Of a stretch of 64,000 nt of DNA, positions 116 through 63,652 are shown in pieces; the first letter of the stretch is position 1; every line of letters starts with the position of its first letter. The DNA is taken from the IMG/VR virus record IMGVR_UViG_3300028920_000045, positions 1-64,000 of that record. One strand, given 5' to 3'. Position numbers and translations under genes: made by a program. The notes beneath the pieces were generated by a model. That model did not search any database. It worked only from the letters and a program-made list of their open reading frames with translations, and had not been told where the DNA came from. Source of the stretch: a virus.

Positions 116-391
116 GTGCCGAAGAAGAAGAGACTCTCCGAGTCCGAGGAACTGGCAGCTCTGCGACGTGACGGGAACGAACTCCGACGGTCCCTCAAGA
201 TCGTCCGTCGGGAGCGGGACGCCCTCTCCGACGAGCTGTCCGATACACAGGACGCCCTCGACGAAGAGACGGCTCGACGGCTCGCCCTGGAGATCCAGGT
301 CGAGAGACTCCAGGAACTCGTCGACGACCTGTCACCGAAGACGAAGACCCAGGGACATCCGGCTCCCTGGTATCGGCGGATCTGGAACTGA
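116..391 (+). CDS. Hypothetical coiled-coil protein
   Basis: GTG start after GGGAG; heptad-like E/L/R-rich sequence. Confidence 0.7.
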   Translation: MPKKKRLSESEELAALRRDGNELRRSLKIVRRERDALSDELSDTQDALDEETARRLALEIQVERLQELVDDLSPKTKTQGHPAPWYRRIWN

Positions 392-408
392 AAAGGGAGG
401 GGTTGATC

Positions 409-999
409 ATGCCCGACGAGAAGAAGAGACCGAGGACGAACGAGGCGGAAGTCACCCTCGACCGACTCGCCGCGTTCGTGTATATCCTGGTCAGGGACTT
501 CGTCCATCCCGGAGACCTCAACCGGGTCGTCGAGGAGTTCGGTGAGAAGCTGGAGTTCCTGGCCTCCGATCCCCTCCTGGCCGTCTGGTCCTCGGACTTC
601 GCCCGACGTATCCGTTCGGCCGAGTGGAAAGCCCTGGTCCACCGAGTTCGGTTCGGAGGGGCAAGGGCTCACCTGGAGACCGACGGTGACCTCGGTCCGA
701 CCCTCCACGTCGAGGTCGACGAGTACCATCCTCAACTCAACCCGGAGGAGCTGGCCGAGGTTCGGGTCGTCGGGAAGAAGCCCGGGTTGATCGAGAGGTC
801 GAGACGCCCTCTCCGGATCATCCCGACCGACGACGGGAAGTGGCACATCTTCGTCCTCGACATCCGACGGGACGCCGATGGGAAGGTCGTCGACGAGGAG
901 TGGGTCGAGGTCGACCTGGTCGACGCCGAGTACGAGGACGGACCTCCGACCGGGAAACCACTCGACCGGGACGACGAGGAGGAGGGAGACGAGTCGTGA
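409..999 (+). CDS. Hypothetical protein with acidic C-terminus
   Basis: GGGAGG RBS; genome-typical codon usage. Confidence 0.75.
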   Translation: MPDEKKRPRTNEAEVTLDRLAAFVYILVRDFVHPGDLNRVVEEFGEKLEFLASDPLLAVWSSDFARRIRSAEWKALVHRVRFGGARAHLETDGDLGPTLHVEVDEYHPQLNPEELAEVRVVGKKPGLIERSRRPLRIIPTDDGKWHIFVLDIRRDADGKVVDEEWVEVDLVDAEYEDGPPTGKPLDRDDEEEGDES

Positions 1000-1193
1000 A
1001 CCCCTGGTCGACCTGGGTCCGGTTCCATCCGGTGACCGGCAAGATCGTCGGGGTCTGGTACCAGACCTGGGCGTGTCCCGAGCACCTTCCGGGGTACGTC
1101 CTCTTCGACGACGACGAGGTCCTCGGGGACGGAGACGACTTCCCCGTCTTCCGAGTCTTCACCCGACGACCACCGAAGGGAGAGCGGACATGA
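996..1193 (+). CDS. Hypothetical protein
   Basis: GTGA overlap with upstream stop and ATGA overlap with next gene. Confidence 0.6.
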   Translation: MNPWSTWVRFHPVTGKIVGVWYQTWACPEHLPGYVLFDDDEVLGDGDDFPVFRVFTRRPPKGERT

Positions 1194-1570
1194 GAGAGAC
1201 CGACTTCCACCTCAAGATCGGAAACGCGGAGATCACCGTCGAGGGTCGTGTCCTCCGGGTCGAGTTCTTCGACGAGGAGGACGGGTACCTCGACGGAGAG
1301 AGACTCGACACGGTCGAGATCGGAGCCGTCGCCATCCGGGACGAGGAGAGAGCTGCCGACTCGATCCGGATCGTCCGTGGTCAGGTCGACTCGGACTGGG
1401 AGATCCGACGAGTGGCCGGTCCGGTCGAGGAAGGACTCTTCGAGGACTGGGAGGTCGTGGGGGAGGTTCACTCCGGACACGGTCACGGTCCGACTCGCCT
1501 CTCTCTCCTCATGCACCGACAGGACAAGACCGTCCGGGTGACCGACGAGGGAGACCCCGACGAGGTCTAA
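1190..1570 (+). CDS. Hypothetical protein
   Basis: MRETDFHLKIG start after GGAGAG; coupled to upstream gene. Confidence 0.7.
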   Translation: MRETDFHLKIGNAEITVEGRVLRVEFFDEEDGYLDGERLDTVEIGAVAIRDEERAADSIRIVRGQVDSDWEIRRVAGPVEEGLFEDWEVVGEVHSGHGHGPTRLSLLMHRQDKTVRVTDEGDPDEV

Positions 1571-2447: not shown

Positions 2448-2663
2448 TTGTCTCTCTGGAGCCGCGTGAGGAAGTTCTGGGACCGGGTCTCGGAGACCAG
2501 GACGACCAGGACCGAGACGTACACCCTCAATCTCCTGGTCAACGGGAAGCCGGTCGACCCGGACTCCGACCAGGGCCGACGAGTCGTCGAGGAGTTCCGT
2601 GAGAAGGAGAGGCAGCTCGAAGAGGTCACGAAGAGGATCTTCCGAGGTGAGCCGTGGGAGTGA
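2448..2663 (+). CDS. Hypothetical protein
   Basis: GGAGGTGA RBS; CCGAACTATCC motif at 2404-2414. Confidence 0.65.
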   Translation: MSLWSRVRKFWDRVSETRTTRTETYTLNLLVNGKPVDPDSDQGRRVVEEFREKERQLEEVTKRIFRGEPWE

Positions 2664-3097
2664 GGACGACCATCCCTGACCCAGTCGGCAGCTCTCCGGT
2701 CCCGTCCCTGGTCGTGACCGGTGTCCTTGTCCTCGTTCTCCTCCTGGTCCTCCTCGCACCACGACTCAACCGATGGGCCGACCGTAAACTCGCCCGGTTC
2801 CGTCGAGAGGAAGAACTCCGGGGGTTGACCACGATCAAGATCGATCTCCGGTCGTCGACTCCGGTGACCGAGTGCAAGTCGTACCCCAGGATCGACTCGG
2901 CCGTTGCTACCCTCCCTCCTCCCTGGGGGAAGAGGTCCCAGGACCTCCGACCGTTCTGGGTCCGGAGGATGCCTCGGTCGTGGTACGAGTACCTCTCCCG
3001 ACGGGTCTGGTTCCGACGACTCGTCTGGAGAGTCGTGACCAGTCCGAGGAGAATCAACCGAATCATGTACGTCGATCTCGCAGAGAAGGAGGAGTGA
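2654..3097 (+). CDS. Hypothetical membrane-anchored protein
   Basis: Hydrophobic stretch LVVTGVLVLVLLLVLLAP. Confidence 0.65.
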   Translation: MGVRTTIPDPVGSSPVPSLVVTGVLVLVLLLVLLAPRLNRWADRKLARFRREEELRGLTTIKIDLRSSTPVTECKSYPRIDSAVATLPPPWGKRSQDLRPFWVRRMPRSWYEYLSRRVWFRRLVWRVVTSPRRINRIMYVDLAEKEE

Positions 3098-3098: not shown

Positions 3099-4349
3099 GT
3101 GTCGAAGGAAGTCAAAAGGGAACGACCGACGAAGAAGAACGAGTACCCCGAGACGTGGGGCCAGAGGTCCAAGTTCGTCGACCTGGTCAGTCGGGCAGCT
3201 CTGGGGCGGGACCCGAGGACGTTGACGCCGGTTCTCGGAGCGGTCCGACTCGTCGTCGGGGAGGACAGTCGACTCCTGGCCCAGTCGACCGACCTGGAAT
3301 TGAGGGTATCGGTCCGGTCCGAGGTGGGCTGGAACGGAAAGCCCTTCGATGTCATGGTCGACCCCGTCGTCTTCGGGAAGATCGTCAAGCCGAAGAAGAA
3401 GGCGAACGACGGACCGATCAACCTCTCGGTTCTTCCGAACCCTCTCCCGTCGGCTTCACCGAGGATCAAGATCGACGTCGACGGACTCGCCTCGTCTCTC
3501 CTGACCCCCGGGTTCGTCGAGGACTTCCCCGAGGGGTACACCGAACCGACCGACGAGAGGGTCCTCTGGACCTGGCCCGGGAAGGACCTGACCACGGCCC
3601 TCCAGTACCTCAACCCGTCGATCTGCACCGACGAGACGAGGTACTCCCTCAACGGGGTCCTCTTCCGCCCGGGTGACCTGGTCTCGACCGACGGTCACCG
3701 CCTCCACAAGATCACGAACCCGTCGAGTCCGGACGGGTGCGTCGAGTTCGATCCGGTGATCGTCCCCCGGAAGGTGATCGGAATCCTCCTCAAGCTGGTC
3801 GGTGGCTCGCCGGTTCGTTTCATGACCCAGACCGAGGGGACGGAGAAGAACGTCGACAACGAAGAGGTCCCGGTCCGGAGGTTCCTCTTCCGGTCCGACG
3901 ACTGGGAGATCTGGTTCCGGCAGATCGACGGCGAGTACCCCGACACCGAGCAGGTTTATCCGAGCCGTCGGAAGATCGTCTTCGTCGTGTCGGTCGACCG
4001 TGACCAGATCATCCGATCCGTCACCCGAGCCCTCGACGTGATCGGGAGCCCCCAGTTCACCGGGGTTGCGGTTCACCTCCCTCCCCCTGGGGAGTCCACC
4101 CTCAAGATCACGGCGTCGTCTGCGACGGTCGGAGAGATCAAGACCGAGGTCGAGGGAGTCGTGGTCAAGGACCACCGGGAGGATGGCTCGACCCTCAAGG
4201 TCGTCGGAGTCAACGCGAAGTACCTCCAGGAAGCGGTCAAGGTCTTCGACTCGACCGTGACCCTCTCTTTCGTCGACGAACTCCTCCCCGTCTTCGTCGA
4301 GTCCGAGGAGGACGGGATCTCCTCCCTGGTCATGCCGATCCGTCTCTAG
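3099..4349 (+). CDS. dnaN: DNA polymerase III beta subunit-like sliding clamp
   Basis: STDLEL, DETRYSLNGVLF, VSTDGHRL, IVPRK, IDGEYPD, NAKYLQEA and C-terminal LVMPIRL motifs. Confidence 0.92.
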   Translation: MSKEVKRERPTKKNEYPETWGQRSKFVDLVSRAALGRDPRTLTPVLGAVRLVVGEDSRLLAQSTDLELRVSVRSEVGWNGKPFDVMVDPVVFGKIVKPKKKANDGPINLSVLPNPLPSASPRIKIDVDGLASSLLTPGFVEDFPEGYTEPTDERVLWTWPGKDLTTALQYLNPSICTDETRYSLNGVLFRPGDLVSTDGHRLHKITNPSSPDGCVEFDPVIVPRKVIGILLKLVGGSPVRFMTQTEGTEKNVDNEEVPVRRFLFRSDDWEIWFRQIDGEYPDTEQVYPSRRKIVFVVSVDRDQIIRSVTRALDVIGSPQFTGVAVHLPPPGESTLKITASSATVGEIKTEVEGVVVKDHREDGSTLKVVGVNAKYLQEAVKVFDSTVTLSFVDELLPVFVESEEDGISSLVMPIRL

Positions 4350-6173: not shown

Positions 6174-6574
6174 CCAAGTACTTCGACGACGCCGTCGGAC
6201 AGGTCACCGAATACGCGGACACGATCTCCGACGACGACACCTTCTGGAGAGGTGTGTGCGAGGTCGAGGTTGTCGTGATCGAGGAGGTCCGACTCAACAC
6301 GGGGGACCGTGAGTTCCCCGAGGACCTCCGAGAGAAGATCATGACCGCGATCTCGGTCGACCGGGCGTACGTCTCCCGGAGGGTCGTGACGGCGACCAGG
6401 ATGTCGACCCTCCTGGGGTCCCTTCACGCCCTCTTTCACGACCTGGCAGCTCGTCGGATCGAGACTCGGTTCGGTCGGTGGTCGGACGACCCGAGAGGGA
6501 ACTTGAGGTCTCGTCGGGTCCACGACCAGGACCTCGGTCGACGACTCGGTCTGGTCCACTCGGACGCCCTCTAG
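6170..6574 (+). CDS. Hypothetical protein
   Basis: GTGA overlap with upstream gene. Confidence 0.65.
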   Translation: MTKYFDDAVGQVTEYADTISDDDTFWRGVCEVEVVVIEEVRLNTGDREFPEDLREKIMTAISVDRAYVSRRVVTATRMSTLLGSLHALFHDLAARRIETRFGRWSDDPRGNLRSRRVHDQDLGRRLGLVHSDAL

Positions 6575-8715: not shown

Positions 8716-9101
8716 CGTGGTCTCTCCCTCTTGACCTTCTTCTTCGGTCTCGACCTGGTCGGGGCCGGGGTCGGAGCCGGTCCCTCTCGACCCTCCCGAC
8801 GAGCTGCCATGATCGGCTTGACCAGACGACGGACTCTCTTCTCGACCCGAGCCCGGTCACGGTCGACCAGGACGACGAACGGGATGGTCACCTTGATCCC
8901 CTTCTCCCGGAGACGGACGTCGAGGTTCGGGAGTATCCGGACCTCGTCGACGAAGAGTCCCCCGATGTCGTGCTTGAGGGACTGGAAGTACCAGTGCTGG
9001 ACGTCGGTGTCGAAGTATCGGTACTTCGACTCCTGGACCGACCGGGCGACTCGGGCCATGACCAGGTCGACCCCGAGTCCCTTCTTTCTCTTCTTCCCCA
9101 C
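8712..9101 (-). CDS. Hypothetical basic protein
   Basis: GGAGGTGA RBS and GTG start inside the left arm of an inverted repeat. Confidence 0.7.
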   Translation of the reverse strand: MGKKRKKGLGVDLVMARVARSVQESKYRYFDTDVQHWYFQSLKHDIGGLFVDEVRILPNLDVRLREKGIKVTIPFVVLVDRDRARVEKRVRRLVKPIMAARREGREGPAPTPAPTRSRPKKKVKRERPR

Positions 9102-9319
9102 TGGTCACCTCCTGGGGGATAGTTCGGAGCTGCCAGGTTCCCCAGGTTCCCTCTCCCGTGAGAGTCTCCAGGACGGGAGAGGGGATCTCGGGGGTCTTCG
9201 GATACCCGTCGATCCCCGTTTGCGCCTCCTGGGACGGCTCTGGAGGTCCTGGACACCTTCCCGGCCGGTCGTGTACCCCAGAGACGGACCCCGAACTATC
9301 CCCAGGAGGTGACCAGTGG
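9098..9319. repeat. 29/30-bp inverted repeat carrying the RBS and start codon of two divergent genes
   Basis: 9098-9127 is the reverse complement of 9291-9319 (CCGAACTATCCCC(C)AGGAGGTGACCAGTGG) apart from one C. Confidence 0.9.
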
Positions 9320-9904: not shown

Positions 9905-10213
9905 GTGACTCTTCTGGTTCGGCAGCTCCTCGACGAACTCCACGACACGGGTCTCCCCGACCGGCTCCTGGTCGTCCGAGCCCTGGGTCCGAGGCACACC
10001 CTCTTCGAGTGGGTCCTCTGGCACCGAGGTCCTGGTCCCGCGTTCCAGTTCGTCGGTCCTCCGTCCAGGACGATCCCCCGATGGGACCCCGACCAGGGAG
10101 CCGGGGGGATCTGGGTCTTCGATCTCTGGGAGGAGGAGTACCGTGGTCCGAAGAACCCTCACCCGGAGTTCTCCTTCCTGGATCTCCTGTCCTGGGTCGA
10201 CGGTGACTTCTAA
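9905..10213 (+). CDS. Hypothetical protein
   Basis: GGAGGT RBS before GTG at 9905. Confidence 0.6.
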   Translation: MTLLVRQLLDELHDTGLPDRLLVVRALGPRHTLFEWVLWHRGPGPAFQFVGPPSRTIPRWDPDQGAGGIWVFDLWEEEYRGPKNPHPEFSFLDLLSWVDGDF

Positions 10214-11557: not shown

Positions 11558-11742
11558 CCATTTTTTTTAGACGACTACTTCTAGCCACTGATTACTGGTA
11601 GTTACAAGACCTGCCAGAGAGCTGCCAGAAGGGGTCGGAGGACGAAAAGCGGGACCCCTGCCGGGGGTCCTCGGAGGGTCCGAGTTCGTCGATCTCGACC
11701 AGACCGAGGTCGGAGTCCGAACTATCCGACGGAGGTGGTCGA

Positions 11743-12204
<462 letters not shown>

Positions 12205-12359: not shown

Positions 12360-12662
12360 ATGGCAGCTCGGAAGAAGAAGACCAGGGAGAAGACGGGGAA
12401 GGGGAAGTCCCCCCGTCTCCGACGGCAGGAGGTGTCGAAGATCGGGGAGTACGTCTACCGGCAGATCGAGAGACAGGGTGTGACCGCCGCCGCGTTCGCG
12501 GAGTCGGTCGGTCAGTCACCCCAGAACCTCTCGGCCATGCTCCGGACGGCCGACCCACGTCTCTCGACCGTGACCCGGATCGCGGGGTTCTTCGACCAGA
12601 CGACCTCGAAGTTCCTGGCCGTCGTCGAGAGGTGGCACAAGGACAAGAACCGGAAACGGTGA
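12360..12662 (+). CDS. Cro/CI-type (XRE) helix-turn-helix regulator
   Basis: QGVTAAAFAESVGQSPQNLSAML...DPRLSTVTRIAGFF. Confidence 0.85.
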   Translation: MAARKKKTREKTGKGKSPRLRRQEVSKIGEYVYRQIERQGVTAAAFAESVGQSPQNLSAMLRTADPRLSTVTRIAGFFDQTTSKFLAVVERWHKDKNRKR

Positions 12663-13284: not shown

Positions 13285-13823
13285 TAGAGGTGGCGGGCGG
13301 CGGTCTGGAGGAGTTCCCCCAGTTCGGGGTGTGACTGCTCGAAGGCATCCCCCAGCTCCGACAAGAACCGGGCGACGTCCTGGTCGCCCGGTTCCCCCGC
13401 ATTGAGGTTCCTCAAGCCAACCGTGATCGCGGGCTCCAGGTCCGGGAGGTCCTGGAGTTCGGTGAGCTGCCCGGAGAGGTCCTCGACCTCGGACTCCAGG
13501 CTCTCGATCTTCTTCTCGGCCGTCTCGTACTCGGGCTTGACCAGGTCGAGAACCTTCCGGACGACCGAGGAGGTTGCGGAGGTCGTTCCCGACTTCTGGA
13601 TACGGGTGAGGATCTCGTCGACGTAGACCTTGACCCTTCGGCCGATCTTCCCGGACCCGAGGTCGTCCTGGACCTCCTTCGTGATCGTCTCGAAGATGTC
13701 CTCGTCGTCTTCGCCCTGGAACTCGTCTTCGCCCTGGAACTCGTCTTCGACCAGGTCGACGACTTGGTTCCAGTCCTTGACCTCGACTTCGTCTTCGTCC
13801 TTGTCCTTCGCCTCGTCGACCAT
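13281..13823 (-). CDS. Hypothetical acidic coiled-coil protein
   Basis: GGAGGT RBS; CCGAACTATC motif at 13853-13862; EDEFQG duplication. Confidence 0.72.
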   Translation of the reverse strand: MVDEAKDKDEDEVEVKDWNQVVDLVEDEFQGEDEFQGEDDEDIFETITKEVQDDLGSGKIGRRVKVYVDEILTRIQKSGTTSATSSVVRKVLDLVKPEYETAEKKIESLESEVEDLSGQLTELQDLPDLEPAITVGLRNLNAGEPGDQDVARFLSELGDAFEQSHPELGELLQTAARHLY

Positions 13824-14541: not shown

Positions 14542-16032
14542 ATGGCGAGACGAACGACAACGGCGAAGAAGAGAAAGACAGCGACCGGAGCTGCCGAGAG
14601 TCGAGACGAACTCCTCCGGGTCGTGACCGAGTACCAGTCTCTCTCGGACGAGATCATCCGACGGGCCGTGATCGACGAGTCCCGATTCGACATCCTCGCC
14701 TCGGAAGTCCTGGGACTTGAGGTCGAGGAGGCGCACCTTGAACTCCTCGCGTTTGCTCTCCAGCACAAGAACTCCCTTCACCTGGCCTTCCGGGGGTGCG
14801 GGAAGACGACGACTCTCACCGTGGTCTATGCCATCGGTCGAATCCTCCAGGACCCCGAACTCCGAATCTTGATCGGTTCCCAGTCCCTCGGGTACGCGAA
14901 GACCATCCTAAAGGAGATCAAGGGACACCTTGAGTCAGAACGGCTAACCGAGGTCTTCGGTGATCAGAGGTCCCCGACGAAATGGGAGGAGACCGAGGCG
15001 ACCGTCCTGGGGAAGACCAAGGTCACGAAGGAGTCTTCGTTCACGGCCCTCGGGTGTGAGGGTCAGCTCACCGGTCGACACTTCGACATAATCCTCGTCG
15101 ACGACCTGGTCTCCGAGACGAACTGTCGGACCAGAGCCCAGAGGGAAAAGGTCAAGACGTTCTTTTACAAGACCCTCGACCCGTGTCTGGAGCCCGGGGG
15201 TGAGAAGAAGGTGATCGGGACGAGGTATCATCCCCTCGATCTGTACGGTCACCTCTGCGACCACGAGTACTCGTCGTCGGCCCAGATCATCCCCGCCCTC
15301 TTCGAGTACGAGGAGGTCGATCCATCGACCGGGAAGATGGTCACCCGGTACGAGTCGTCGGCTCCTGGTCGGTTCCCGGTCTCGTACCTCCTAGAGAAGC
15401 GGGACACGATCCCGACTATTGTCTGGCTCACGCAGTACCAGTGCGAGACGTCGAGGTACCACGGAAGGGTCTTCCGGCCCGAGTTCTTCGAGAGGGAGGG
15501 GTTCTACTTCTCCGGTCCTCTTCCCGAGGGTTCGTTCAAGTACCAAGCTGTCGACCCGGCCGTCACCGAGGACACGGCAAACGACTTCTTCGCCCTCATG
15601 ACCATCGCCGTCGACGGTGACGGAGACGTCTGGGTCGACTCGTACGACAACGTCCGACTTGAGTTCCCGGACCAACCGGATCACTGTATCGACAGATTCG
15701 ACGAGGAGGACCCGATTCGTCTGGGGATCGAGAGCAACGCTTACCAGAAGGCACTCGGTCAAGAGATCCTCCGACGAGCCCCTCACCTCAAGGGAAGGGT
15801 TGTCCCTCTTTTCACCGACCGGGACAAGATGACTCGGGCTCTCAAGTTGACGGCGTACTTCCAGACTGGCAGGATACACCTCCGTCGAGAGCACTCGGAC
15901 TTGGTTGAGCAGCTCCTAGAGTTCCCGGAAGGCGAGCACGATGATCTATTCGACGCCCTCGACTTGGCCGTCCAGCTAGGGACGAGGACCAGGGTCAAGA
16001 GGAAGCGGCGCAAGGAGTTCGGGGTCCTCTAG
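14542..16032 (+). CDS. terL: Terminase large subunit
   Basis: FRGCGKTT (Walker A), TGRHFDIILVDD (Walker B), IGTRYHPLDLY, AVDPA, IESNAYQ, FPEGEHDDLFDAL. Confidence 0.96.
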   Translation: MARRTTTAKKRKTATGAAESRDELLRVVTEYQSLSDEIIRRAVIDESRFDILASEVLGLEVEEAHLELLAFALQHKNSLHLAFRGCGKTTTLTVVYAIGRILQDPELRILIGSQSLGYAKTILKEIKGHLESERLTEVFGDQRSPTKWEETEATVLGKTKVTKESSFTALGCEGQLTGRHFDIILVDDLVSETNCRTRAQREKVKTFFYKTLDPCLEPGGEKKVIGTRYHPLDLYGHLCDHEYSSSAQIIPALFEYEEVDPSTGKMVTRYESSAPGRFPVSYLLEKRDTIPTIVWLTQYQCETSRYHGRVFRPEFFEREGFYFSGPLPEGSFKYQAVDPAVTEDTANDFFALMTIAVDGDGDVWVDSYDNVRLEFPDQPDHCIDRFDEEDPIRLGIESNAYQKALGQEILRRAPHLKGRVVPLFTDRDKMTRALKLTAYFQTGRIHLRREHSDLVEQLLEFPEGEHDDLFDALDLAVQLGTRTRVKRKRRKEFGVL

Positions 16033-19751: not shown

Positions 19752-20094
19752 GATCGACTCGTCCCACTACCTCCCCGCTCACCCCGGGAAGTGCCGTCGT
19801 CTTCACGGACACCGATGGGTCTTCGAGGTCGAGGTCACGGCCGAGGACGTCGACGAGACGACCGGGATGGTCGTCGACTTCGGTGACCTGGCCGCACCGA
19901 TCAAGGCCCTCGACCATCGGGTGATCAACGAACTCGATCCGTTCACCCGAATCCCTCCGACGGCCGAGAACCTGGCGAAGTGGGCCGTCGAGGAGGTCTG
20001 GGGTCTGGCACCGACCGCCCTGTCGGTCACGGTCACCGTCTGGGAGACGCCGAGTTCGTCGGTCTCCTGGACGAAGAGGAGAGACGACCGGTGA
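19726..20094 (+). CDS. queD: 6-carboxy-5,6,7,8-tetrahydropterin synthase
   Basis: SHYL, GKCRRLHGHRW, GMVVDFGDL, LDHRVIN, PTAENLA, VWETPSS. Confidence 0.96.
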   Translation: MYRLRKRVEIDSSHYLPAHPGKCRRLHGHRWVFEVEVTAEDVDETTGMVVDFGDLAAPIKALDHRVINELDPFTRIPPTAENLAKWAVEEVWGLAPTALSVTVTVWETPSSSVSWTKRRDDR

Positions 20095-21256: not shown

Positions 21257-21260
21257 GAGA

Positions 21261-29621: not shown

Positions 29622-29632
29622 GGAGGTCCCCG

Positions 29633-49007: not shown

Positions 49008-50227
49008 CCTCCTGGGACGTCCAGCTTCCTCCGTCCTTCTCTCTCGACGTGAACGGGACGAGAATCCAGGACGACGTCGGACGGATGGTCAAGTCCATCC
49101 GATACACCGACGCAACCGACGGAGCCGACGTCCTGGAACTCACCCTCGACGATCCGACCCTTTGGCTGGTCGACTCGAAGATCTTTGCCGAGGGGAACGT
49201 CGTCGATCTCTTCCTGGGGTACGGACACGTCAACCGGTTCGTCGGTCGGGTCCTGATCTGGGAACCGCCCAGGGCGTCGGCTCCGAGGAACGGTCGACCG
49301 TCGACGACAGTGATCGGACACAGCGCGACCCGCTGGCTAATGGAGTCCTCGAAGAAGAAGAAGGGGCGTCGTATCGGCTCGGCCGAGACGAGGACGTCGG
49401 CCGCGAATCGAGAAGCGGACCAGGAGACCGTCGGGATCATCGCCTGGGACTATGGGTTCAAAGCCCAAGCCGACCGGACACAGCAGAAGAGAAAGGCGAT
49501 CAAGAGGAAGGGCAAGTCGGACTGGCAGCTCCTCAAGGACATGGCTCGACTCAACGGGTTCCGAGTCTGGTGCGAGTGGATTCCGGAGAACCTCGCCGGT
49601 CAGTGGAACCTCTGTTTCCTCAAGCCGGGGAACCAGCCCCGTCGACCCCGGGATCTTCGACCTGGTCAGTACGAGTTTTTCTGGGGAGTCGACGAGACGA
49701 CCCAGAACAACCGACTCCTCGACTGGTCCGCGTCGTTCTCGACCCAGGCCGGGGCGTCCGAGGTCGAGGTTCTCCGGTACGACCGGAAGACGTACTCCTA
49801 TGCCCGGTATATCGCCCGTCTTGAGCAGAAGGGTCGGTCGCACCTCTTCTACGGTCCGAAGGGGAACGAACTCTCGAAGGAGGAGATCACCACGGGATCA
49901 AGGGTTCTCTTTACAGCCTTCGGTCGGCAGCTCCACGTAATCCGAGACCGACCCTTTGCGAACGACGCGGAGGCCCTGGAGTACGCCCGGTCCTGGCTCG
50001 GCAGGAACTCCCTCTCCTTCATTCACCTCCAGGGAACGGTACCCGGCCTTCCGGATCTCCGGAAGTACACGAAACAGAAGATCACGGGAGTCCCGGCGAG
50101 ACTCGCGGGGGAGTACGAGTTCTTCGACATCGTACACGAACTCAACGAAGGGTCCGGGTATACGTGTCGATTCTCCGCGAGACGAGCCGAGGACATCGGA
50201 CTCGATATGTCCGCGTTTAGGGTGTAG
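49004..50227 (+). CDS. Baseplate hub / phage late control D-like protein
   Basis: GADVLELTLDD, DLFLGY, SDWQLLKDMARLNGF, GTVPGLPDLR, LAGEY...HEL...GYTCRF. Confidence 0.85.
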   Translation: MTSWDVQLPPSFSLDVNGTRIQDDVGRMVKSIRYTDATDGADVLELTLDDPTLWLVDSKIFAEGNVVDLFLGYGHVNRFVGRVLIWEPPRASAPRNGRPSTTVIGHSATRWLMESSKKKKGRRIGSAETRTSAANREADQETVGIIAWDYGFKAQADRTQQKRKAIKRKGKSDWQLLKDMARLNGFRVWCEWIPENLAGQWNLCFLKPGNQPRRPRDLRPGQYEFFWGVDETTQNNRLLDWSASFSTQAGASEVEVLRYDRKTYSYARYIARLEQKGRSHLFYGPKGNELSKEEITTGSRVLFTAFGRQLHVIRDRPFANDAEALEYARSWLGRNSLSFIHLQGTVPGLPDLRKYTKQKITGVPARLAGEYEFFDIVHELNEGSGYTCRFSARRAEDIGLDMSAFRV

Positions 50228-50229: not shown

Positions 50230-51369
50230 ATGCCGGTCGAGCAGTGGAAGGCAACGGTCACGGCGAACGACGACCCCCAGAAGAGGGGTCGGATTCGGGT
50301 GACGTGTCCTGCTCTCCTGGACGCGGACGACGACGAAGCCGCTGTCCGAGAGGGAGAGCACCCGGAACCTCCGGAGCTGCCCGACTGGATCGATCCCTCG
50401 TTCTTCTTCGCGGCTAACTACACAGGACGGACGAGCGCCGAGGGACAGTTCACCGAGACGAACCAGCCTGCCGGGTTCTTCTTCGTCCCTCGCATCGGTG
50501 ACCAGGTCGTGATCGAAATTGACACCGACGCCGACGACCTGGAACTCGAAGAGAGAATGACCTGGAGGTTCGCCCTCTACCCGACGACCGACGACGTCCC
50601 GTCTATTTTTCAAGGGGTCTTCTCCGACGAGATCGACGAGAGAACACAGGACCTCTTGTATACCCGGATCTGGGGGTTCTTCTCGTACGAAGGTCACGGC
50701 CTGCTCATGCTCGACGTCCCAGCTAATCAGGGCGGGACTCTCTTCCTGGTCCAGAACGCACAGACGACGTCTCCTGGTCTTTCCCCCGAGCGGTTCCTGG
50801 TTATGGGGGAGATGGACGGATTCGACGACCCGGTCTTCGCAGTGATCGACAGGAACCAGAACGAGATCTCAATCGAGGAGAGCGGCAGGATCATCCTCAA
50901 CTCGGCAATCTACGGGGGGACTCTCTACTTCGACGACAAGATCGTCGGACTATATTCCGAATATGGGTCCGGACATGAGCTAGAGATGGTCACCGATCCC
51001 GGTGCCGGTGAGGATTATATTCGGATGCTCCACCGGAACGGAGGGGTTGAGTTCTACCTGGACGAAGACCGGATCTTTATGGAGGACTCTCTCGGTGAAG
51101 TGGTCGAGCTAAACACCTCCGGAGGTCCGTCGCAGATCTATATCGGGTCCAGTGCGACCGAGCCTCTCGTCCTGGGGACTCAACTCCAGACGATCCTCAA
51201 TTCGATCATGACCTTTCTCTTGACCCACGTACACGAAGGACCAGGACACGCCCCGCCCGATGGGTTCACCGGAGGACTCGGAACGGTGTCCGCTTCGGGA
51301 TGGGCGACCTTGACCGCTCTGATCGCCGGGACCACTTGGCTCTCGGACTTGGCAAAGACGAAGAAGTGA
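50230..51369 (+). CDS. Baseplate spike (gp5/gpV OB-fold)
   Basis: VTANDDPQKRGRIRVTCP, GFFFVPRIGDQVVI, EPLVLG, THVH. Confidence 0.88.
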   Translation: MPVEQWKATVTANDDPQKRGRIRVTCPALLDADDDEAAVREGEHPEPPELPDWIDPSFFFAANYTGRTSAEGQFTETNQPAGFFFVPRIGDQVVIEIDTDADDLELEERMTWRFALYPTTDDVPSIFQGVFSDEIDERTQDLLYTRIWGFFSYEGHGLLMLDVPANQGGTLFLVQNAQTTSPGLSPERFLVMGEMDGFDDPVFAVIDRNQNEISIEESGRIILNSAIYGGTLYFDDKIVGLYSEYGSGHELEMVTDPGAGEDYIRMLHRNGGVEFYLDEDRIFMEDSLGEVVELNTSGGPSQIYIGSSATEPLVLGTQLQTILNSIMTFLLTHVHEGPGHAPPDGFTGGLGTVSASGWATLTALIAGTTWLSDLAKTKK

Positions 51370-51882: not shown

Positions 51883-52470
51883 GTGACCCAGGAGAAGAAG
51901 AGAGGTCGACTCGGACAGGTCGCCTCGGTGATTGCGTCGGTCGCCGCTCTGGTCGTCGCACTCACGACGGCCTGGACCTCGGTCGCCCCCACCGTGGTCG
52001 AGGACCAGGAGAAGAAGGTCCAGGCCCAGGGGGAGAAGGTCGATCAGTTCTATGCCCTCTTCCGGACCGTGGTCGAGGAGCAGAGGGCGACCATTCGTCT
52101 CCTCCTGGACGAACTCCGGGCAGCTCGTCGGGGGGAGACACCCGTCGAGGTCTCGGCCGGGGTGGGGATGGTCACGACCGGAGGTGGTCGTCGAGTTCGG
52201 GCCGCTCCCCGGGTTCGGTCCGGGTCGCCCCCCAGGGTGACCTCGACTCCGTCTTCTCCCCCTCCGGACCCCGAGATCGAAGAGGTCGGGGAGAGCGAGA
52301 CAGCCCAGGAGGGGCGATCTCCGGACTGGACCCCTCTCCCTCCGTCCCTGGAGCAGTACGTCCAGGAGAGACGACCTCCGGGCGTCCTGGCCCCCGTTCC
52401 GGGTCCTTCCCCAGACGCGGGAGCCGTCGAGACCGAGGTCGAGGCCCCTCCGAGGGTCGAGGAGGAGTAG
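51883..52470 (+). CDS. Hypothetical membrane-anchored protein with Pro-rich tail
   Basis: VASVIASVAALVVALTTAW then coiled coil. Confidence 0.65.
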   Translation: MTQEKKRGRLGQVASVIASVAALVVALTTAWTSVAPTVVEDQEKKVQAQGEKVDQFYALFRTVVEEQRATIRLLLDELRAARRGETPVEVSAGVGMVTTGGGRRVRAAPRVRSGSPPRVTSTPSSPPPDPEIEEVGESETAQEGRSPDWTPLPPSLEQYVQERRPPGVLAPVPGPSPDAGAVETEVEAPPRVEEE

Positions 52471-52873: not shown

Positions 52874-55048
52874 ATGGCGACGGTAACCGTTCCCTCGTTT
52901 CGATTCGCGGTCTTCTTCTACGCGGAGATCCTCTCCGAACTCCGGGCGTACCTCCGGATCAACGTCCCGGAGCTGTCAACCGAGAACGATTACGAACTCG
53001 CCGTCCAGATGCTCAAGTCCTTCGCCCTGGTCGGACACCTCAACTCGGTCCATACCGACGCAGCGGCGAACGAGGCCGTCTTCGGGACGGCGAAACTCCT
53101 GGAGTCCGTCCGACAGCACCTCAAGTTGATCGGGGTTGAGCCCGACACGGCGACCCCCGCCGTCTCGTACATCTTCGCCCGATTGACCAAGGTCTTCGAC
53201 GCGACGACCGAGGTGGTCCCTCCCTACTCCCAATTTGCGACCGCACCGACCGCCGACTCCGTCGGGGTCGTCTTCGAGTACAACGACGACGAGGCCCTCT
53301 CGGTTTCCAGGACCGACGAACTCTCGGCCGTCTTCTCGGACAACGGGGGAACCTTCACCGACTACACAACCGAGGCGGTCTCGGGTGCGTCGTGGTCTCC
53401 CTGGCCGACGGTCGAGGCTCAAGACGCGGTGTACTTCGGTCACGACTCGATCATCTTCTCCGGGTTCGTGGCCGACGTCGACACGGCCGGGGCGGATTAC
53501 GACGGGGTCTGGGAGTTCTATGCCGGGTCCCTGGGGTATCCCTACAGCAACCCCTCGGACGTAACGGACCTCGGGTCGACTCTCCGCTTCGACCTCGACG
53601 GAACCCTCGGGTCCTCGAAAGCAACCGGATCTTTGATCCGAGTCCAGTACAACCCGACGGGTGCGTACGAGGATGTCGAGTCACAGTGGGACGGGGTCCA
53701 TAACTATATCGAGACGTCGACCCTCCTGGGTCAGTCGTCGCCGTCAACCGAAGAGTCCGACTACACGGTCGGGAGCGAGTGGCTCCGGGTCTTCCAGGTT
53801 TCCGACGAGTCCTCTGGGTTCAAGTCGGACGGAGAGGGGTCGGTCTTCTTCGTCCCGGGAAGCTACGTCCTCCCGTACATTCAGCCCGGGACGGTCAACG
53901 GTGTCGAGGCGTACTGGTTCCGATACCGGGTGACCGAGGTCGGTGGCGCTCCGACCGGACCAGACCTCCAGGAGATCGCCCTCTCCGGGCAGTACCAGAT
54001 CATCCGATTCGAGGTGACGCAGGGGCAACGGATCGTCCAGGAACCTCTCGCCGCCGGGACGGGGACGGCGAGTCAACAGTACACCCTCGCCCGGACGTCG
54101 TACATCGGGGGGACTCTCCTGATCACCGTCGACCCGGGGACCGGAGCCCAGGACTGGGAAGAGGTCGACAACTTCCTCAACTCCACCTCGACCGACCGAC
54201 ACTTCACCGTCGAGGTCGGTCAAGACGACATCGTTCTTGTCACCTTCGGGAACGGAGACAACGGGGCAATCCCTCCCGTCGGTTCCGTGATCAATGCCTA
54301 TTATCGGATCGGTGCCGACGTCGACGGGAACGTGGCGGCGGGGAGTATCACGATCAACCGATCCGGTGTCCCCTACCTCGGAGACATCGCCTCCGGTCCT
54401 GGGGTCGGATGGAAACCTGCCCGGGGGTCGGACGCCGAGGACCTGGAGAAGCTCAAGATCGAGGGACCGGCCGAGATCCGGACTCTGGGGAAGGCCGTCA
54501 CCGTCGACGACTTCTCCGTCGTCTCCCTCGACTACCAGAACTCCCTCGGTGCGAAACCGATCTCCCGAGCGTACGCCATCTTCGAGGAACTCGGACCGAA
54601 GACCGTGGGTCTTCACCTCGTCGCCTCGGGTGGGAACTTCCTCACGGCCGACGTCCTGGAGGACGTGGAGAAGTGGTACAACGGGGACGACGATCTCGAT
54701 TACGACACCCGGGTCCTCATGGGGTACCAGGTCGGAGCCCAGAACTATCGACGGAAGACGATCACCGTCGAGGCCACGGTCAAGGCCCGGGGTGTGACCC
54801 AGGGTCAGATCAAGGCAGCTCTCCAGACATTCCTCAACCCACTGGCGACCCACGACGACGGGGTCACCTGGAGATGGGACTTCGGAGAGAAGGTCCCCAC
54901 GTCGAAGATCATCGGAGCAATCGACGGAGTCGCACCGGACAAGATCGAGGAAGTGACCTTGACCGTCCCTGCCTCCGACGTGTATCTGGACCCGGACGAG
55001 CTGCCGTGGGTCACGAACGCGGACCTCACGATCACGGTCGTCGAGTAG
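52874..55048 (+). CDS. Baseplate J-like wedge protein
   Basis: VRQHLKLIG, WEEVDNFLNS...DRHF, FGNGDNGAIPP, YRIGADVDGNV, KAVTVDDF. Confidence 0.9.
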   Translation: MATVTVPSFRFAVFFYAEILSELRAYLRINVPELSTENDYELAVQMLKSFALVGHLNSVHTDAAANEAVFGTAKLLESVRQHLKLIGVEPDTATPAVSYIFARLTKVFDATTEVVPPYSQFATAPTADSVGVVFEYNDDEALSVSRTDELSAVFSDNGGTFTDYTTEAVSGASWSPWPTVEAQDAVYFGHDSIIFSGFVADVDTAGADYDGVWEFYAGSLGYPYSNPSDVTDLGSTLRFDLDGTLGSSKATGSLIRVQYNPTGAYEDVESQWDGVHNYIETSTLLGQSSPSTEESDYTVGSEWLRVFQVSDESSGFKSDGEGSVFFVPGSYVLPYIQPGTVNGVEAYWFRYRVTEVGGAPTGPDLQEIALSGQYQIIRFEVTQGQRIVQEPLAAGTGTASQQYTLARTSYIGGTLLITVDPGTGAQDWEEVDNFLNSTSTDRHFTVEVGQDDIVLVTFGNGDNGAIPPVGSVINAYYRIGADVDGNVAAGSITINRSGVPYLGDIASGPGVGWKPARGSDAEDLEKLKIEGPAEIRTLGKAVTVDDFSVVSLDYQNSLGAKPISRAYAIFEELGPKTVGLHLVASGGNFLTADVLEDVEKWYNGDDDLDYDTRVLMGYQVGAQNYRRKTITVEATVKARGVTQGQIKAALQTFLNPLATHDDGVTWRWDFGEKVPTSKIIGAIDGVAPDKIEEVTLTVPASDVYLDPDELPWVTNADLTITVVE

Positions 55049-59912: not shown

Positions 59913-60581
59913 ATGTCCCAGAGCAAGTCGAAGAAGAAGAAGCGGATCGCCAAGGTCGTCGGGAAGCCCCAGAGACCGGACCCGGCAGCTCCCGTCCCGA
60001 CTCGGAGCCTCCCTCCGGGGGCGGTCCCGGTCCAGGTCCCGGCCCAGACCATGACCACCTCGGGGGACAAGGACCTCGACGGTCGGGCCGACCGTCTCCT
60101 CCGGTCCGACCCCGAGAAGATCGAGGACCCGACCCTCCGTCTCCTGATCAAGACCTGGAGACCGAAGGCACTGACCCACGCCGGTCACACCGGTCGGCTC
60201 GAAAACCTCAAGGCCCAGATCCGGGGAGCCGAGGACGAGATCCAGAAGGCCCGGGGCGGGATCTCCTCGGTCGAGGAGATGATCTTCGAGCGGCTCCGCG
60301 AGATGGACCAGGAGGAGGCCGAGGGCCAGGAGGAGACCGACGACCAGGTCGAGGAGGGGTCCCAGGACTCCCAGGACGGGCCAGGAGACGAGAACTCCCC
60401 CGAGGACGGACAGGAGGACCCCCAGGAGGAGAACGAGGCCCAGGAGGGCGAGGAGACGGCCGAGTCCACCCCGGACCCGGCCGAGACCAAGGGGGAACCC
60501 GAGACGGAGACCGAGACCGAGGACGGTGAGGTTCCGGCCGAGGAGACCGTCGACAAGACCGGGGAGGCCGAGACCGGCTGA
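59913..60581 (+). CDS. Hypothetical protein (basic N-tail, coiled coil, acidic C-tail)
   Basis: GAGGAGG RBS. Confidence 0.72.
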   Translation: MSQSKSKKKKRIAKVVGKPQRPDPAAPVPTRSLPPGAVPVQVPAQTMTTSGDKDLDGRADRLLRSDPEKIEDPTLRLLIKTWRPKALTHAGHTGRLENLKAQIRGAEDEIQKARGGISSVEEMIFERLREMDQEEAEGQEETDDQVEEGSQDSQDGPGDENSPEDGQEDPQEENEAQEGEETAESTPDPAETKGEPETETETEDGEVPAEETVDKTGEAETG

Positions 60582-60961: not shown

Positions 60962-61353
60962 CCATCCTCAAGGAACGAGTCAAGACCCTCTGGCTTCGAG
61001 TTCGTCGGGGAGGGTGGAAGGTCTGGCTCGTCGTCGTCCTGGTCGTGGTCGGTGTCCTCGCGGTCCTCAAGTTCGTCCTCTCCGGTGGGGGTCTCTTCAC
61101 GACGAAGGGCAAGGCCGGGGAGAGGGTCCGCGAGGAAGTGAAGAAGACGGCCGGGATGATCGAGGGTGCCATCGCCGGGACCCGGGAGAGGATCAAGACA
61201 CGAACCAAGGTGATCGAGGAGAGGGAGACCGAGATCGAGGAGATCAAGACCCTCGACTCCGAGGTCGAGAAACTCCGACGTCTGGCCGAACTCTCGAATC
61301 GGACCGTCCCTCGACGTGGCCGGGACCAGGGGCGACGAAGGGGGTCACCGTGA
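60958..61353 (+). CDS. Putative inner spanin-like protein
   Basis: N-terminal TM (VWLVVVLVVVGVLAVLKFVL) plus coiled coil; coupled to holin-like gene. Confidence 0.5.
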   Translation: MTILKERVKTLWLRVRRGGWKVWLVVVLVVVGVLAVLKFVLSGGGLFTTKGKAGERVREEVKKTAGMIEGAIAGTRERIKTRTKVIEERETEIEEIKTLDSEVEKLRRLAELSNRTVPRRGRDQGRRRGSP

Positions 61354-61871
61354 ACCCAGACACCCGCCGAGGTCCGTTCGGCCGTCCTGGGGGACCTCAC
61401 GTCCTCCTGGTCGTGGTCCTGGTCGGTCTCATGTCCTCGATCCCGGGTCGGGCCTGGGCCGAGGGGATCAAGCTCCTTCCTGGTCTCCGAGTCGACTGGA
61501 CGACCCTCCCCGAGTTCCAGCCCGCTCCAGACCCAGACCCGATCCCGGCCGACGACCCCGGAGCGGTCCTCGTCGAGAAGGGACAGGAGGCTCCGTTCTC
61601 CGGTCTCCTGATCTCGGCCGACCGGATGATCTGGTACGAGGCCGTCGTCGTCCAGAGGGACAAGCTCAAGGTCCAGGTCGAAGAGACCGTCGACCTGGCC
61701 CAGACGATCCAGACCACGGCCCTCGAAGGGATGGAACGAGCCGCGAAAGCCGCCGAGCCCAAGTGGTACGAGTCACCCGAGGTCAACCGGTGGGGAGGGT
61801 TCCTCCTGGGTCTGGTCCTGGTCTCGGGTGTCGTCGGTGTCGCCGTCGGAGTCTCCCAGGCCGTCGACTAA
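61350..61871 (+). CDS. Membrane protein, possible lysis accessory
   Basis: Signal-like N-terminus (AWA), EKGQEAPFSGLLI, coiled coil, C-terminal TM. Confidence 0.55.
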   Translation: MNPDTRRGPFGRPGGPHVLLVVVLVGLMSSIPGRAWAEGIKLLPGLRVDWTTLPEFQPAPDPDPIPADDPGAVLVEKGQEAPFSGLLISADRMIWYEAVVVQRDKLKVQVEETVDLAQTIQTTALEGMERAAKAAEPKWYESPEVNRWGGFLLGLVLVSGVVGVAVGVSQAVD

Positions 61872-61968
61872 CGTGTCCCCTCCCCGCGCCTAGTCCGTCC
61901 AGCTCTCGAAGTATCCTTCGACTCTATACCCGGAGCCCTCACACCCTCCGGGGTCGAGGTTGTCGACT

Positions 61969-62202
61969 GTGAAGAAGAACCCCCTCCGAGAGAAGTTCCG
62001 ACCAGGGGTCCGAGACCCCGATGTCGTCTGTCGAGGGAGGGAGATCCTGACCGGGTTCTGTGTCCGTCACCGATGGCGGGTCAACCGGGACGGGCTTCCC
62101 TGCGACGAGGCGAACCAGAGGAACGTGACCCGGTGCGGGGAGTGTGTCCACTATCGGAGCCCGAAGGACGAGGTCGAAGATGATCCGCTTCCGCGTCGGT
62201 GA
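61969..62202 (+). CDS. Small Cys-rich hypothetical protein
   Basis: GAGGT RBS; five Cys including CGEC. Confidence 0.55.
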   Translation: MKKNPLREKFRPGVRDPDVVCRGREILTGFCVRHRWRVNRDGLPCDEANQRNVTRCGECVHYRSPKDEVEDDPLPRR

Positions 62203-63652
62203 CGCCCGCACTGTGATCGAGGGAGTCGAGAAGTCGCTTCTCCGGGACCTCGACGAGATAACCTCGTACAAGATCGATGGAGCCCACTTCTCTCCGTCGT
62301 TCCGTCAACGACGGTGGGACGGGAAGACTCACCTCTTGAGGTACTCCCGTCGATTCGGACTCCGGTTGTACACGGGTCTCGTCCCGATAGCTGCTAGGTA
62401 CCTCCGGAACCTCGGACACCGGGTCGAGGTGATCGACGAGAGACGACCTCTCAACCGAACCGTTGACACTCCCCTCCCGTGGCTCGACGACGAGTTCGTC
62501 CTCCGTCCCTACCAGGAGGATTCGGTTGAGGCCATCCTCTCGAAGAACCCCGACCTCCCCGGCCGAGGGATGGTCTCGTCGGCCGTCCGGTCTGGCAAGA
62601 CCGTTATGGCCGGGGGGTTAATCCATCGGACCCAGGCGAGGGCTCTCTTCCTCGTACATCAGGAGAGGCAGTTCGATCAGACCTGGAGGTTGTACTCTCA
62701 CCTCTTCGGCCGTGACCGTGTCGGGATGGTCGGGTCGGGGTACTGGGAACCGAACGACGTGACCGTCGGGATGGTCCAGGCCCTCCACCCGAAGAGGAAG
62801 ACGGCCGAGGTCAAGAGACTCCTCCAGTCCGTCGACGTCCTCGTCGTCGACGAGTGTCACCACCTCAAGCAAGCCCAGACCTGGAAGGACCTGGTCCTCA
62901 AGTGTGACGCCCGGATCAAGGTCGGGATCTCGGCCACGATTTACCTCTCCAGGAAGAAGGAGTCCGAGAAGGCAACGGTCTGGCTCCAGGCCCTCACCGG
63001 TCCCCTCCTCTACACGATCTCGACGAAGAGGTTGATCAAGATGGGCGTCCTCGTCCCGGCGACGATCCGACTGGTCAAGGTCCAGGGACCAGACGTCGTC
63101 GACGTGGACTGGGACCAGGCCCAGAAGAAGGGGATCGTCCAGCACGATCAGAGAAACCGGATCATCGCCCGTATCGCCCAGAGGAGGGTGAGGAAGGGAC
63201 GGAAGGTCCTGGTTATAGCCCGACGTCGTGAGCACATCGACCGACTGATCTCCGAGTTCCAGGAGCACGACCTCGGTGACCTGGTCGTGAGGATCGACGG
63301 ACGGACTCCGAAGGGGACCAGGACGAAGAGGGTCTCCCAGTTCGTCGACGGATCAAAGCCTCTCTTGATCGGGTCCGTCTTCCAGGAGGCGGTCGACATC
63401 CCCCAGATCGAGGACGTGATCGTCGCGGACGGTGGGAAGGACAGGAAGGCCACGATCCAGAAACTCCGGAACCTCACCCCTCACAAGGGGAAGACTGATC
63501 GGGTCTACGTGTACGACATGATCGACTTGCACAACCCGACCTTGGCAGCTCACAGTCGGGCTCGGATCAGTGCCTATCGGTCCGAGGACTGTTTCGACTT
63601 CGAGGTGATCGACTGGTCGAAGAGAAAGACCAGGAAGAAGGGACGACGTTGA
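62180..63652 (+). CDS. SF2 DExH-box helicase (UvsW/ResIII-like)
   Basis: LRPYQ, RSGKT, VVDECHH, GISAT, EAVDIP, TIQKLRNL, VYDMID. Confidence 0.93.
   Translation: MIRFRVGDARTVIEGVEKSLLRDLDEITSYKIDGAHFSPSFRQRRWDGKTHLLRYSRRFGLRLYTGLVPIAARYLRNLGHRVEVIDERRPLNRTVDTPLPWLDDEFVLRPYQEDSVEAILSKNPDLPGRGMVSSAVRSGKTVMAGGLIHRTQARALFLVHQERQFDQTWRLYSHLFGRDRVGMVGSGYWEPNDVTVGMVQALHPKRKTAEVKRLLQSVDVLVVDECHHLKQAQTWKDLVLKCDARIKVGISATIYLSRKKESEKATVWLQALTGPLLYTISTKRLIKMGVLVPATIRLVKVQGPDVVDVDWDQAQKKGIVQHDQRNRIIARIAQRRVRKGRKVLVIARRREHIDRLISEFQEHDLGDLVVRIDGRTPKGTRTKRVSQFVDGSKPLLIGSVFQEAVDIPQIEDVIVADGGKDRKATIQKLRNLTPHKGKTDRVYVYDMIDLHNPTLAAHSRARISAYRSEDCFDFEVIDWSKRKTRKKGRR

Follow-up and report, generated by a model that had tools for sequence, protein, structure and literature searches.

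A dispersed octamer in an uncultured tailed phage

The DNA analysed here (hereafter the window) is the first 64 kb of the 107,749-bp virus record IMGVR_UViG_3300028920_000045 of IMG/VR, which is rated 95% complete; the runs containing the virus are sediment metagenomes. The virus is a tailed phage: it has genes for a terminase, a portal, a tape measure and UvsW, and it also encodes RecA, SbcC/Rad50, a FEN-type nuclease and a LigD-like repair kit, together with a DnaG/Toprim-type primase, a DnaB-like helicase and Pol III alpha and beta. Our gene calls, made with a codon-usage heuristic of our own and not with a standard gene finder, comprise 132 genes, 125 of them on the + strand. Among them, a gene at 22422-26546 encodes a polyprotein of 1374 amino acids that contains an ATP-dependent ligase domain and ends in an XkdF-type prohead protease. 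Scattered through this genome is the octamer GGCAGCTC, the subject of this work.

An exact search of the window recovered 34 copies of GGCAGCTC, 19 on the + strand and 15 on the - strand (where it reads GAGCTGCC), exactly the positions listed in a first-pass annotation of this DNA, with none missing and none extra (Table 1). The whole record contains 51 copies, 28 on + and 23 on -, at a density of about one per 2 kb (473 per Mb). From base composition, 4.4 copies per window are expected, which agrees with the earlier estimate of about 5. The window is poor in GpC, as had also been noticed, and since its GpC odds are only 0.39, this composition figure is too generous. Indeed, dinucleotide shuffles of the window give 0.84 +/- 0.93 copies (maximum 3), and Markov models of orders 1-3 predict 0.9-1.7 copies in the window, against 34 seen, and 1.4-2.0 in the genome, against 51; the word is thus about 25 times commoner than a fair null would permit. 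GGCAGCTC is the most deviant 8-mer in the window and also in the genome. The reversed word, CTCGACGG, was tried as a control and set aside as uninformative, being GpC-free and frequent in DNA of this composition. Searching the literature for the octamer yielded primers only.

Table 1. Octamer copies in the window, followed by the other features discussed in the text (ORF, open reading frame; G001, closest complete relative; L058, strain contig; positions are those of the window unless a contig handle is given).
Feature	Position	Strand	Context
Octamer	154..161	+	Ala-Ala (GCA GCT), ORF 116-391
Octamer	1350..1357	-	antisense to ORF 1190-1570, there GCT GCC (Ala-Ala)
Octamer	2611..2618	+	Gln-Leu (CAG CTC), ORF 2466-2663
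Octamer	2687..2694	+	intergenic
Octamer	3194..3201	+	Ala-Ala, DnaN-like clamp gene 3099-4349
Octamer	6445..6452	+	Ala-Ala, ORF 6170-6574; same in a strain contig ~4% diverged nearby
Octamer	8801..8808	-	Ala-Ala, sense strand of minus-strand ORF 8712-9101
Octamer	9127..9134	-	intergenic; abuts ATAGTTCGG element
Octamer	9921..9928	+	Gln-Leu, ORF 9905-10213
Octamer	11619..11626	-	intergenic
Octamer	12362..12369	+	over start of ORF 12360-12662 (ATG GCA GCT)
Octamer	13464..13471	-	Gln-Leu, sense strand of minus-strand ORF 13281-13823
Octamer	14588..14595	-	Ala-Ala, antisense in terminase gene
Octamer	16981..16988	-	Ala-Ala, portal gene; Ala-Thr in G001
Octamer	17278..17285	-	Ala-Ala, portal gene; Gln-Ser in G001
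Octamer	20240..20247	-	Ser-Cys, QueE; kept in L058
Octamer	20600..20607	+	Ala-Ala, QueE; kept in L058
Octamer	21404..21411	+	Ala-Ala, QueC; kept in L058
Octamer	25061..25068	+	Ala-Ala, polyprotein; Ala-Ala as GCG GCG in G001; kept in L058
Octamer	25303..25310	-	Ala-Ala, polyprotein; Glu-Leu in G001; kept in L058
Octamer	29804..29811	-	Glu-Leu-Pro, ORF 29618-30232; kept in L058
Octamer	30144..30151	+	Gln-Leu, ORF 29618-30232; kept in L058
Octamer	33803..33810	-	Ala-Ala, ORF 32659-33879; same residues, other codons in G001; kept in L058
Octamer	36829..36836	+	Ala-Ala, ORF 34382-37177; Ala-Thr in G001; kept in L058
Octamer	39780..39787	-	Ala-Ala, ORF 39476-40735; Gly-Thr in G001
Octamer	42935..42942	+	Trp-Gln-Leu, ORF 40783-43170; present in G001 too (1 of 2 shared)
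Octamer	49524..49531	+	Gln-Leu, ORF 49004-50227; Glu-Phe in G001
Octamer	49926..49933	+	Gln-Leu, ORF 49004-50227; Gln-Val in G001
Octamer	50374..50381	-	Glu-Leu-Pro, ORF 50230-51369; same residues, other codons in G001
Octamer	52119..52126	+	Ala-Ala, ORF 51883-52470
Octamer	54814..54821	+	Ala-Ala, ORF 52874-55048; same residues, other codons in G001
Octamer	54998..55005	-	Glu-Leu-Pro, ORF 52874-55048; present in G001 too
Octamer	59984..59991	+	Ala-Ala, ORF 59913-60581
Octamer	63544..63551	+	Ala-Ala, UvsW-like helicase gene; same residues, other codons in G001
Candidate reader, DpdA-like DNA-guanine transglycosylase domain	22422..23417	+	N-terminal 332 amino acids of the 1374-residue capsid polyprotein; phrog_887, E=3e-12
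preQ0 supply operon: QueD, QueE, FolE, QueC, YhhQ-like transporter	19708..22420	+	Pfam matches; directly upstream of the DpdA-like domain
CCGAACTATCC element	70-78, 2404-2412, 9119-9127, 9291-9299, 11717-11725, 13854-13862; beyond the window 92267, 99363		
Sigma-70/Rrf2/WGR/AAA_5-CobT/VWA loci	L010:9734-10459, L011:10685-11443, L010:8546-9409, L010:5021-8448		

The excess under codon-level null models

The octamer could be no signal at all and merely follow from composition, codon choice, avoidance of GAGCTC and CAGCTG, or a mutation or repair bias such as very-short-patch repair. CAGCTC is one step away from both of these forbidden palindromes and is mildly enriched (1.5-2.5x) family-wide, and Markov models of orders 5 and 6 reproduce the count, predicting 25 and 32 copies in the window. 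Nevertheless, this high-order agreement is circular, because the octamer itself makes up 51 of the 66 GCAGCT hexamers of the genome, as well as 51 of 57 GGCAGCT and 51 of 55 GCAGCTC. Genome-wide recoding gives a different picture from these high-order models: shuffling synonymous codons yields 13.2 +/- 2.2 copies, a codon shuffle in which every dinucleotide is also kept yields 8.5 +/- 1.7, and the context-preserving shuffles overall range from 8.5 to 14.5, against 51 observed. When proteins, codon usage and total GpC were fixed in a Markov-chain recoding and the 37 absent hexamer palindromes, including GAGCTC and CAGCTG, were forbidden, 9.1 +/- 1.8 copies were obtained. Each of these figures includes the 6 intergenic copies, which are immovable; for coding copies, about 3 are expected under the constrained recoding and 45 are seen. 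A composition artefact was rejected on these numbers: the excess, whose loss under a codon-pair or high-order Markov model with GAGCTC/CAGCTG avoidance would have refuted the signal according to the first-pass annotation, persists when that avoidance is built in.

Further observations run against a by-product. Only 1 of the 16 possible flank contexts of GCAGCT is used (that of the octamer, for 51 of the 66 hexamers), relatives with the same palindrome avoidance show no octamer excess, and about 16 sites needed amino-acid changes. A repair drive would also be expected to deplete the deamination neighbours of the word, and GGTAGCTC, GGCAGTTC, GGCAGCTT, AGCAGCTC, GACAGCTC and GGCAACTC are not depleted. 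We therefore consider it very unlikely that the octamer carries no signal.

Anatomy and coding contexts

The unit is the exact 8-mer, because its flanks are nearly uninformative and its one-mismatch variants are rare, occurring at or near expectation. The word lies in different frames and between genes, as was first noticed by eye: the 51 genome copies comprise 30 that encode Ala-Ala, 9 that encode Gln-Leu, 3 each for Glu-Leu-Pro and Ser-Cys, and 6 intergenic ones. The Ala-Ala copies are read either as G-GCA-GCT-C (19) or as GA-GCT-GCC (11). The use of otherwise rare alanine codons, also pointed out in the first-pass annotation, is confirmed, as GCA and GCT each account for about 10% of Ala codons. 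Among 186 Ala-Ala dipeptides there are 19 GCA-GCT pairs, where about 1.8 would be expected in any context, and all 19 lie inside the full word.

The octamer holds two GpC dinucleotides and is thus costly in a genome that purges GpC. The GpC odds are 0.37 for the whole genome, and 0.21 and 0.29 at synonymously free codon positions. The word alone supplies 51 of the 80 GCWGC, 51 of the 197 AGCT and 51 of the 118 CAGCTC sites in the genome.

A lineage-private word, partly installed through amino-acid changes

A search with the capsid protein places the virus in a family of uncultured viruses. A DNA-level search of the phage collection found no relatives, the terminase shares only 27% identity with those of known phages, and a search with the portal protein retrieved one distant locus. 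The closest complete relative, G001, is a genome of 107,406 bp with terminal repeats and 68% capsid identity; it shares 81 of the 132 genes in conserved order and matches the virus in size and G+C. G001 contains 17 octamers where 10-15 are expected, its GpC odds are 1.10, and only 9 hexamer palindromes are absent from it. Since G001 shows neither the excess nor the GpC depletion nor the palindrome purge, both the octamer excess and the recoding are private to the lineage of the virus. The avoidance of CAGCTG and GAGCTC, with its mild CAGCTC surplus, is found in the whole virus family; the octamer surplus is not.

For 26 sites an alignment to G001 is possible: 2 of them carry the octamer there too, 7 have the same residues in other codons, and at about 16 the amino acids differ. 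Therefore, the word was installed through silent as well as protein-changing substitutions, partly at the expense of the protein sequence. At closer range, the strain contig L058 (97.5% identical over 21 kb) retains 9 of 9 sites, although finding no difference in 72 motif columns, where 1.8 would be expected, is not significant. At window positions 34774-34781, a silent change from GCC to GCA in an Ala-Ala pair has given L058 a tenth octamer, which may illustrate that sites are still being gained. For the copy at 6445, also found in a strain contig, sequencing depth and uncovered parts were not taken as evidence.

On these observations, GGCAGCTC is very probably a positively selected DNA signal. 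The initial idea of such a signal is borne out by a word that survives the constrained nulls, consists of exactly 8 bases, is private to one lineage and was partly built through amino-acid changes. Selected short DNA words, such as Chi, uptake sequences and HIP1, have each led to a reading machine.

Other words came up in the same comparisons. In the distant relatives L029 and L030, enriched 8-mers were discarded as candidates because they derive from collagen-like Gly-X-X repeats in one gene and are not dispersed words; these collagen-like genes adjoin the capsid gene (L029:9900-13186 and L030:12100-17000). The top word of G001 (L052-L057) is AAGGCCAAG, with 22 copies against 1.5 expected, and possibly reflects Lys-Ala-Lys coding.

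Orientation, spacing and the host

The split of 28 + to 23 - copies is unbiased, and the order of strands along the genome is random (runs z=-0.07). No polarity of orientation was found at any rotation of the map (best Fisher P=0.16), nor at the ends inferred from the terminal repeats of G001. The positions are compatible with a uniform distribution, and their spacing is a little more regular than chance would give (coefficient of variation (CV) 0.78, P=0.05 for all sites). This evenness is seen in the + copies (CV 0.64, P=0.008), whose largest gap is 9.2 kb where 15 kb would be expected, the - copies having a CV of 0.81 (P=0.23). Of the genome copies, 45 of 51 are inside genes, and there is no clustering at promoters or at an origin.

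These properties bear on a Chi-like role, in which the octamer would attenuate a host RecBCD or AddAB nuclease so that virus DNA broken by restriction enzymes is spared and can be repaired. Phages rich in host Chi do exist: LLS has 23 copies and MD8 has 32 (PMC12315714; Bobay et al. 2013, PMC3784561), and these lambdoid phages (LLS and relatives) and Pseudomonas MD8 resemble our virus in having an exact octamer in tens-fold excess, inside genes and under selection on DNA. The extreme restriction pressure (37 of 64 palindromes absent) and the LigD-like repair kit would fit such a role, and breaks occurring anywhere would favour copies in both orientations, with the + copies evenly spaced. However, the copies of the Chi-rich phages are strongly oriented (20:3 or 32:0), clustered at one end, and found in phages without recombination genes (PMC12315714). 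In contrast, our virus shows neither polarity nor clustering and has its own RecA, SbcC/Rad50, FEN-type nuclease and UvsW, and its octamer is neither G-rich nor GCTGG-like.

A host word of this kind should also be abundant in the host. The nearest relatives of the viral QueC are from Acidobacteriota (53-57% identity), a weak host hint; a protein atlas search with the clamp indicated no host, and no tRNA is found in the window. The octamer is not in excess in any of the sampled genomes, 151 of Acidobacteriota and 251 of Pseudomonadota (maximum about 213 per Mb against 473 in the virus), the host itself not being identified. The table of 151 genomes includes two unpublished ones (G034 and G059), and no claim is based on their counts. 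A Chi-like role, the first function that had been suggested for the word, is therefore disfavoured by the lack of polarity, the virus's own RecA/Rad50 and the lack of excess in these 402 genomes, and we regard it as improbable.

Three Acidobacteriota genomes with low octamer counts (G016, G105 and G141) were tried as a composition match to the virus and rejected, as their GpC odds are only 0.78 and they simply avoid GCWGC. In these genomes (L111-L114, L117), GCWGC is avoided about 8-fold (9 copies against 75 expected) and CTAG about 60-fold. This avoidance is likely their own restriction footprint, which would explain the low octamer counts and is unrelated to the virus.

The same sampling separates the octamer from the DNA uptake sequences of Neisseria and Haemophilus and from HIP1 (GCGATCGC) of cyanobacteria. 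These are dispersed, orientation-neutral, exact short words that run through coding sequence at about 1 per kb, as the octamer does. Nevertheless, they are words of host chromosomes that the phages of those hosts share at second hand, whereas the viral word is private to one lineage and not enriched in the sampled bacteria.

The even spacing of the + copies could alternatively point to a replication start signal, a template word at which the primase of the virus would begin lagging-strand primers, all the more as the virus encodes its own primase, helicase and polymerase. Yet the - copies lack this regular spacing, the orientation of the copies does not switch around the putative origin near 64 kb, and the orthologous primase of G001 (46% identity) goes with no octamer excess. 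Moreover, DnaG/Toprim primases read sites of 3-5 bases, not 8. A role in priming is hence quite improbable.

A DpdA-like domain and a preQ0 operon encoded by the virus

The N-terminal domain of the capsid polyprotein matches phrog_887, a phage queuine tRNA-ribosyltransferase family (E=3e-12), and its family profile matches the Salmonella DNA-guanine transglycosylase PDB 7UI4 (E=2.9e-8). An AF2 (AlphaFold2) model of the domain, with a pLDDT of 78.5, folds as a TGT barrel: the first 50 Foldseek hits are TGTs without exception, and the fold match reaches a Foldseek probability of 1.00. The domain carries a DSGGF motif and invariant D62, D98 and D204, is without the Zn CxCxxC motif, and is not recognised by Pfam. 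Membership of the TGT/DpdA family is thus supported by profile matches and by the predicted fold. An exhaustive homologue search gave 172 clusters, the nearest (44-47% identical) being N-terminal parts of proteins of 560-1780 amino acids, and no stand-alone homologue of near length was found.

The polyprotein of G001 aligns only from residue 333, so that the DpdA-like domain is missing there, and no tblastn hit to the preQ0 operon genes was obtained in that genome. From this comparison, the domain appears to be a lineage-specific N-terminal addition to the polyprotein. The octamer excess appears alongside a newly acquired 7-deazaguanine system.

What reads the octamer

We tentatively propose that a sequence-specific protein reads the octamer as duplex DNA and that its likeliest reader is the DpdA-like transglycosylase of the virus, which we hold to be possible, short of probable. 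The lack of strand bias and polarity fits an enzyme that reads duplex DNA. In Salmonella, DpdA/B exchanges the central G of CAGCTG and needs a C after the target G, with CxGCxG as a partial motif (Gedara et al. 2023, PMC10164549). Because DpdA/B exchanges this G and the octamer contains CAGCT, the core of the Salmonella site, the octamer may be a DpdA target, the likeness being one of resemblance only. The suggestion of a transglycosylase target made in the first-pass annotation thus gains from the DpdA-family domain and preQ0 operon, both lacking in the motif-free G001, and from the CAGCT core, although this support is indirect. The methyltransferase named beside it finds no support: the only candidate is a generic class I S-adenosylmethionine methyltransferase that is 65% identical in G001, where the motif excess is absent.

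The mechanism would start from what the virus by its sequence encodes, a TGT/DpdA-family domain and a complete preQ0 pathway. The enzyme would recognise the octamer and, by analogy with Salmonella DpdA within CAGCTG, swap one or both of the guanines in the central AGCT, each of which precedes a C, for a 7-deazaguanine. Each modified copy might be useful in itself, as a shield or as a mark of "self" against a DNA-degrading defence of the host. Copies would then have been multiplied to about 1 per 2 kb and distributed fairly evenly, unlike ordinary restriction targets, which are avoided. In its most specific form, the octamer would be a long asymmetric DpdA target whose 50-100 or so 7-deazaguanines serve as positive marks towards a host defence that leaves marked DNA alone, as Dnd, Ssp or Dpd systems do, and the GpC purge would limit off-target exchange; this version we consider rather unlikely as a whole.

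The Salmonella Montevideo Dpd system, whose CAGCTG is the only long DpdA site that has been mapped, is the closest parallel. Both share the enzyme superfamily (7UI4 match) and, for the putative viral modification, the dependence on preQ0; in both the target G would precede a C and sit in a central AGCT with a C before it, at a low density in the order of 1 per kb and not as bulk replacement. In contrast to the viral word, which is asymmetric with 8 specified bases, the Salmonella site is a palindrome, with 0 copies in the virus. The Salmonella system also has a DpdB-like ATPase partner; none turned up in the virus, no search having been aimed at it.

Several points weigh against the DpdA-like enzyme as reader. 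Viruses normally avoid the targets of modification and restriction rather than enriching them, and we know of no precedent for an enriched modification target. The match to CAGCTG covers 5 of 6 bases, which a random octamer would reach by chance about 1 time in 100. Five relatives (L084, L026, L028, L030 and G005) have a TGT domain (31-45% identical) and/or preQ0 genes, and none of them shows an octamer excess or GpC depletion; therefore, the enzyme family alone does not give the pattern. Characterised phage DpdAs read motifs of 2-3 bases: GA in Pseudomonas phage iggy (PMC10484667) and GA plus GGC in Escherichia phage CAjan (PMC10484667; PMC7544227), these short motifs covering 16-25% of all G. 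These phages resemble our virus in encoding a DpdA together with the preQ0 pathway, used in their case against restriction, and one strand of the octamer begins with GGC, the other with GA; however, an enriched long word has not been reported in these phages. A viral enzyme of the GA type would not have the octamer as its specific target. Finally, any of the approximately 50 genes of unknown function that are private to the lineage relative to G001 could encode the reader.

This last point leads to the main alternative, in which another protein, of the virus or of the host, would bind or recognise the octamer, for example where the word mimics a host "self" mark, and the word would serve genome protection, compaction or packaging. 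We regard this as a possible account that falls short of being probable. An exact, orientation-neutral, dispersed and lineage-private word would suit it, as would the many private ORFs without a family match among the 50 or so lineage-private small proteins; two ORFs (8239-8715 and 105891-106694) have weak matches to transcription regulators or DNA-binding proteins. However, the sites of dimeric DNA-binding proteins tend to be longer, degenerate or palindromic, unlike an exact asymmetric 8-mer, no specific candidate stands out, and the copies lie within genes (45 of 51) and do not cluster at promoters or an origin.

Should the transglycosylase be the reader, its recognition code could be tested with a defined 8-bp substrate, and the logic of counter-defence would be the opposite of site avoidance. 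If the marked-target reading is true, the virus would provide the first demonstrated case of viral enrichment of a modification target, and no phage DpdA before it would have had a long recognition sequence.

Palindrome purge and other words

The recoding of the genome may be as interesting as the octamer itself. Of the 64 hexamer palindromes, 37 have zero copies; CTCGAG is absent although TCGA occurs 1,733 times, and CCGCGG, GCCGGC, GCGCGC, GGCGCC and GGGCCC have 0 copies each against about 112 expected for each. GCGC stands at 0.06 of expectation. Whatever the reader of the octamer, this recoded genome (G000) and the syntenic G001, which is not recoded, offer a natural experiment on restriction-driven genome rewriting. 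CTNAG has 0 copies here and 3 in G001; its avoidance is common to both viruses and is older than the lineage-specific purge.

Another word, GGTCAGCTC, was considered as linked to DpdA and rejected: it is mildly enriched here, in L084 and in L022, but occurs in G001 too, and it corresponds to favoured Glu-Leu-Thr coding on the other strand. In the window, a short acidic low-complexity stretch of GAC/GAG codons at 12147-12200 attracts unrelated metagenome contigs by the hundred, which produces a false depth spike and many false joints.

Further proteins encoded in the replication half include a sigma-70 region 2 protein, an Rrf2-type regulator, a WGR-domain protein and an AAA_5 ATPase beside a CobT/VWA protein (Table 1). 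A further element, CCGAACTATCC (ATAGTTCGG on the other strand), has 9 copies, of which 8 are intergenic and lie 4-6 bases upstream of a GGAGG ribosome-binding site, and one copy abuts an octamer. The element is probably the promoter -10 region or an operator of early genes.

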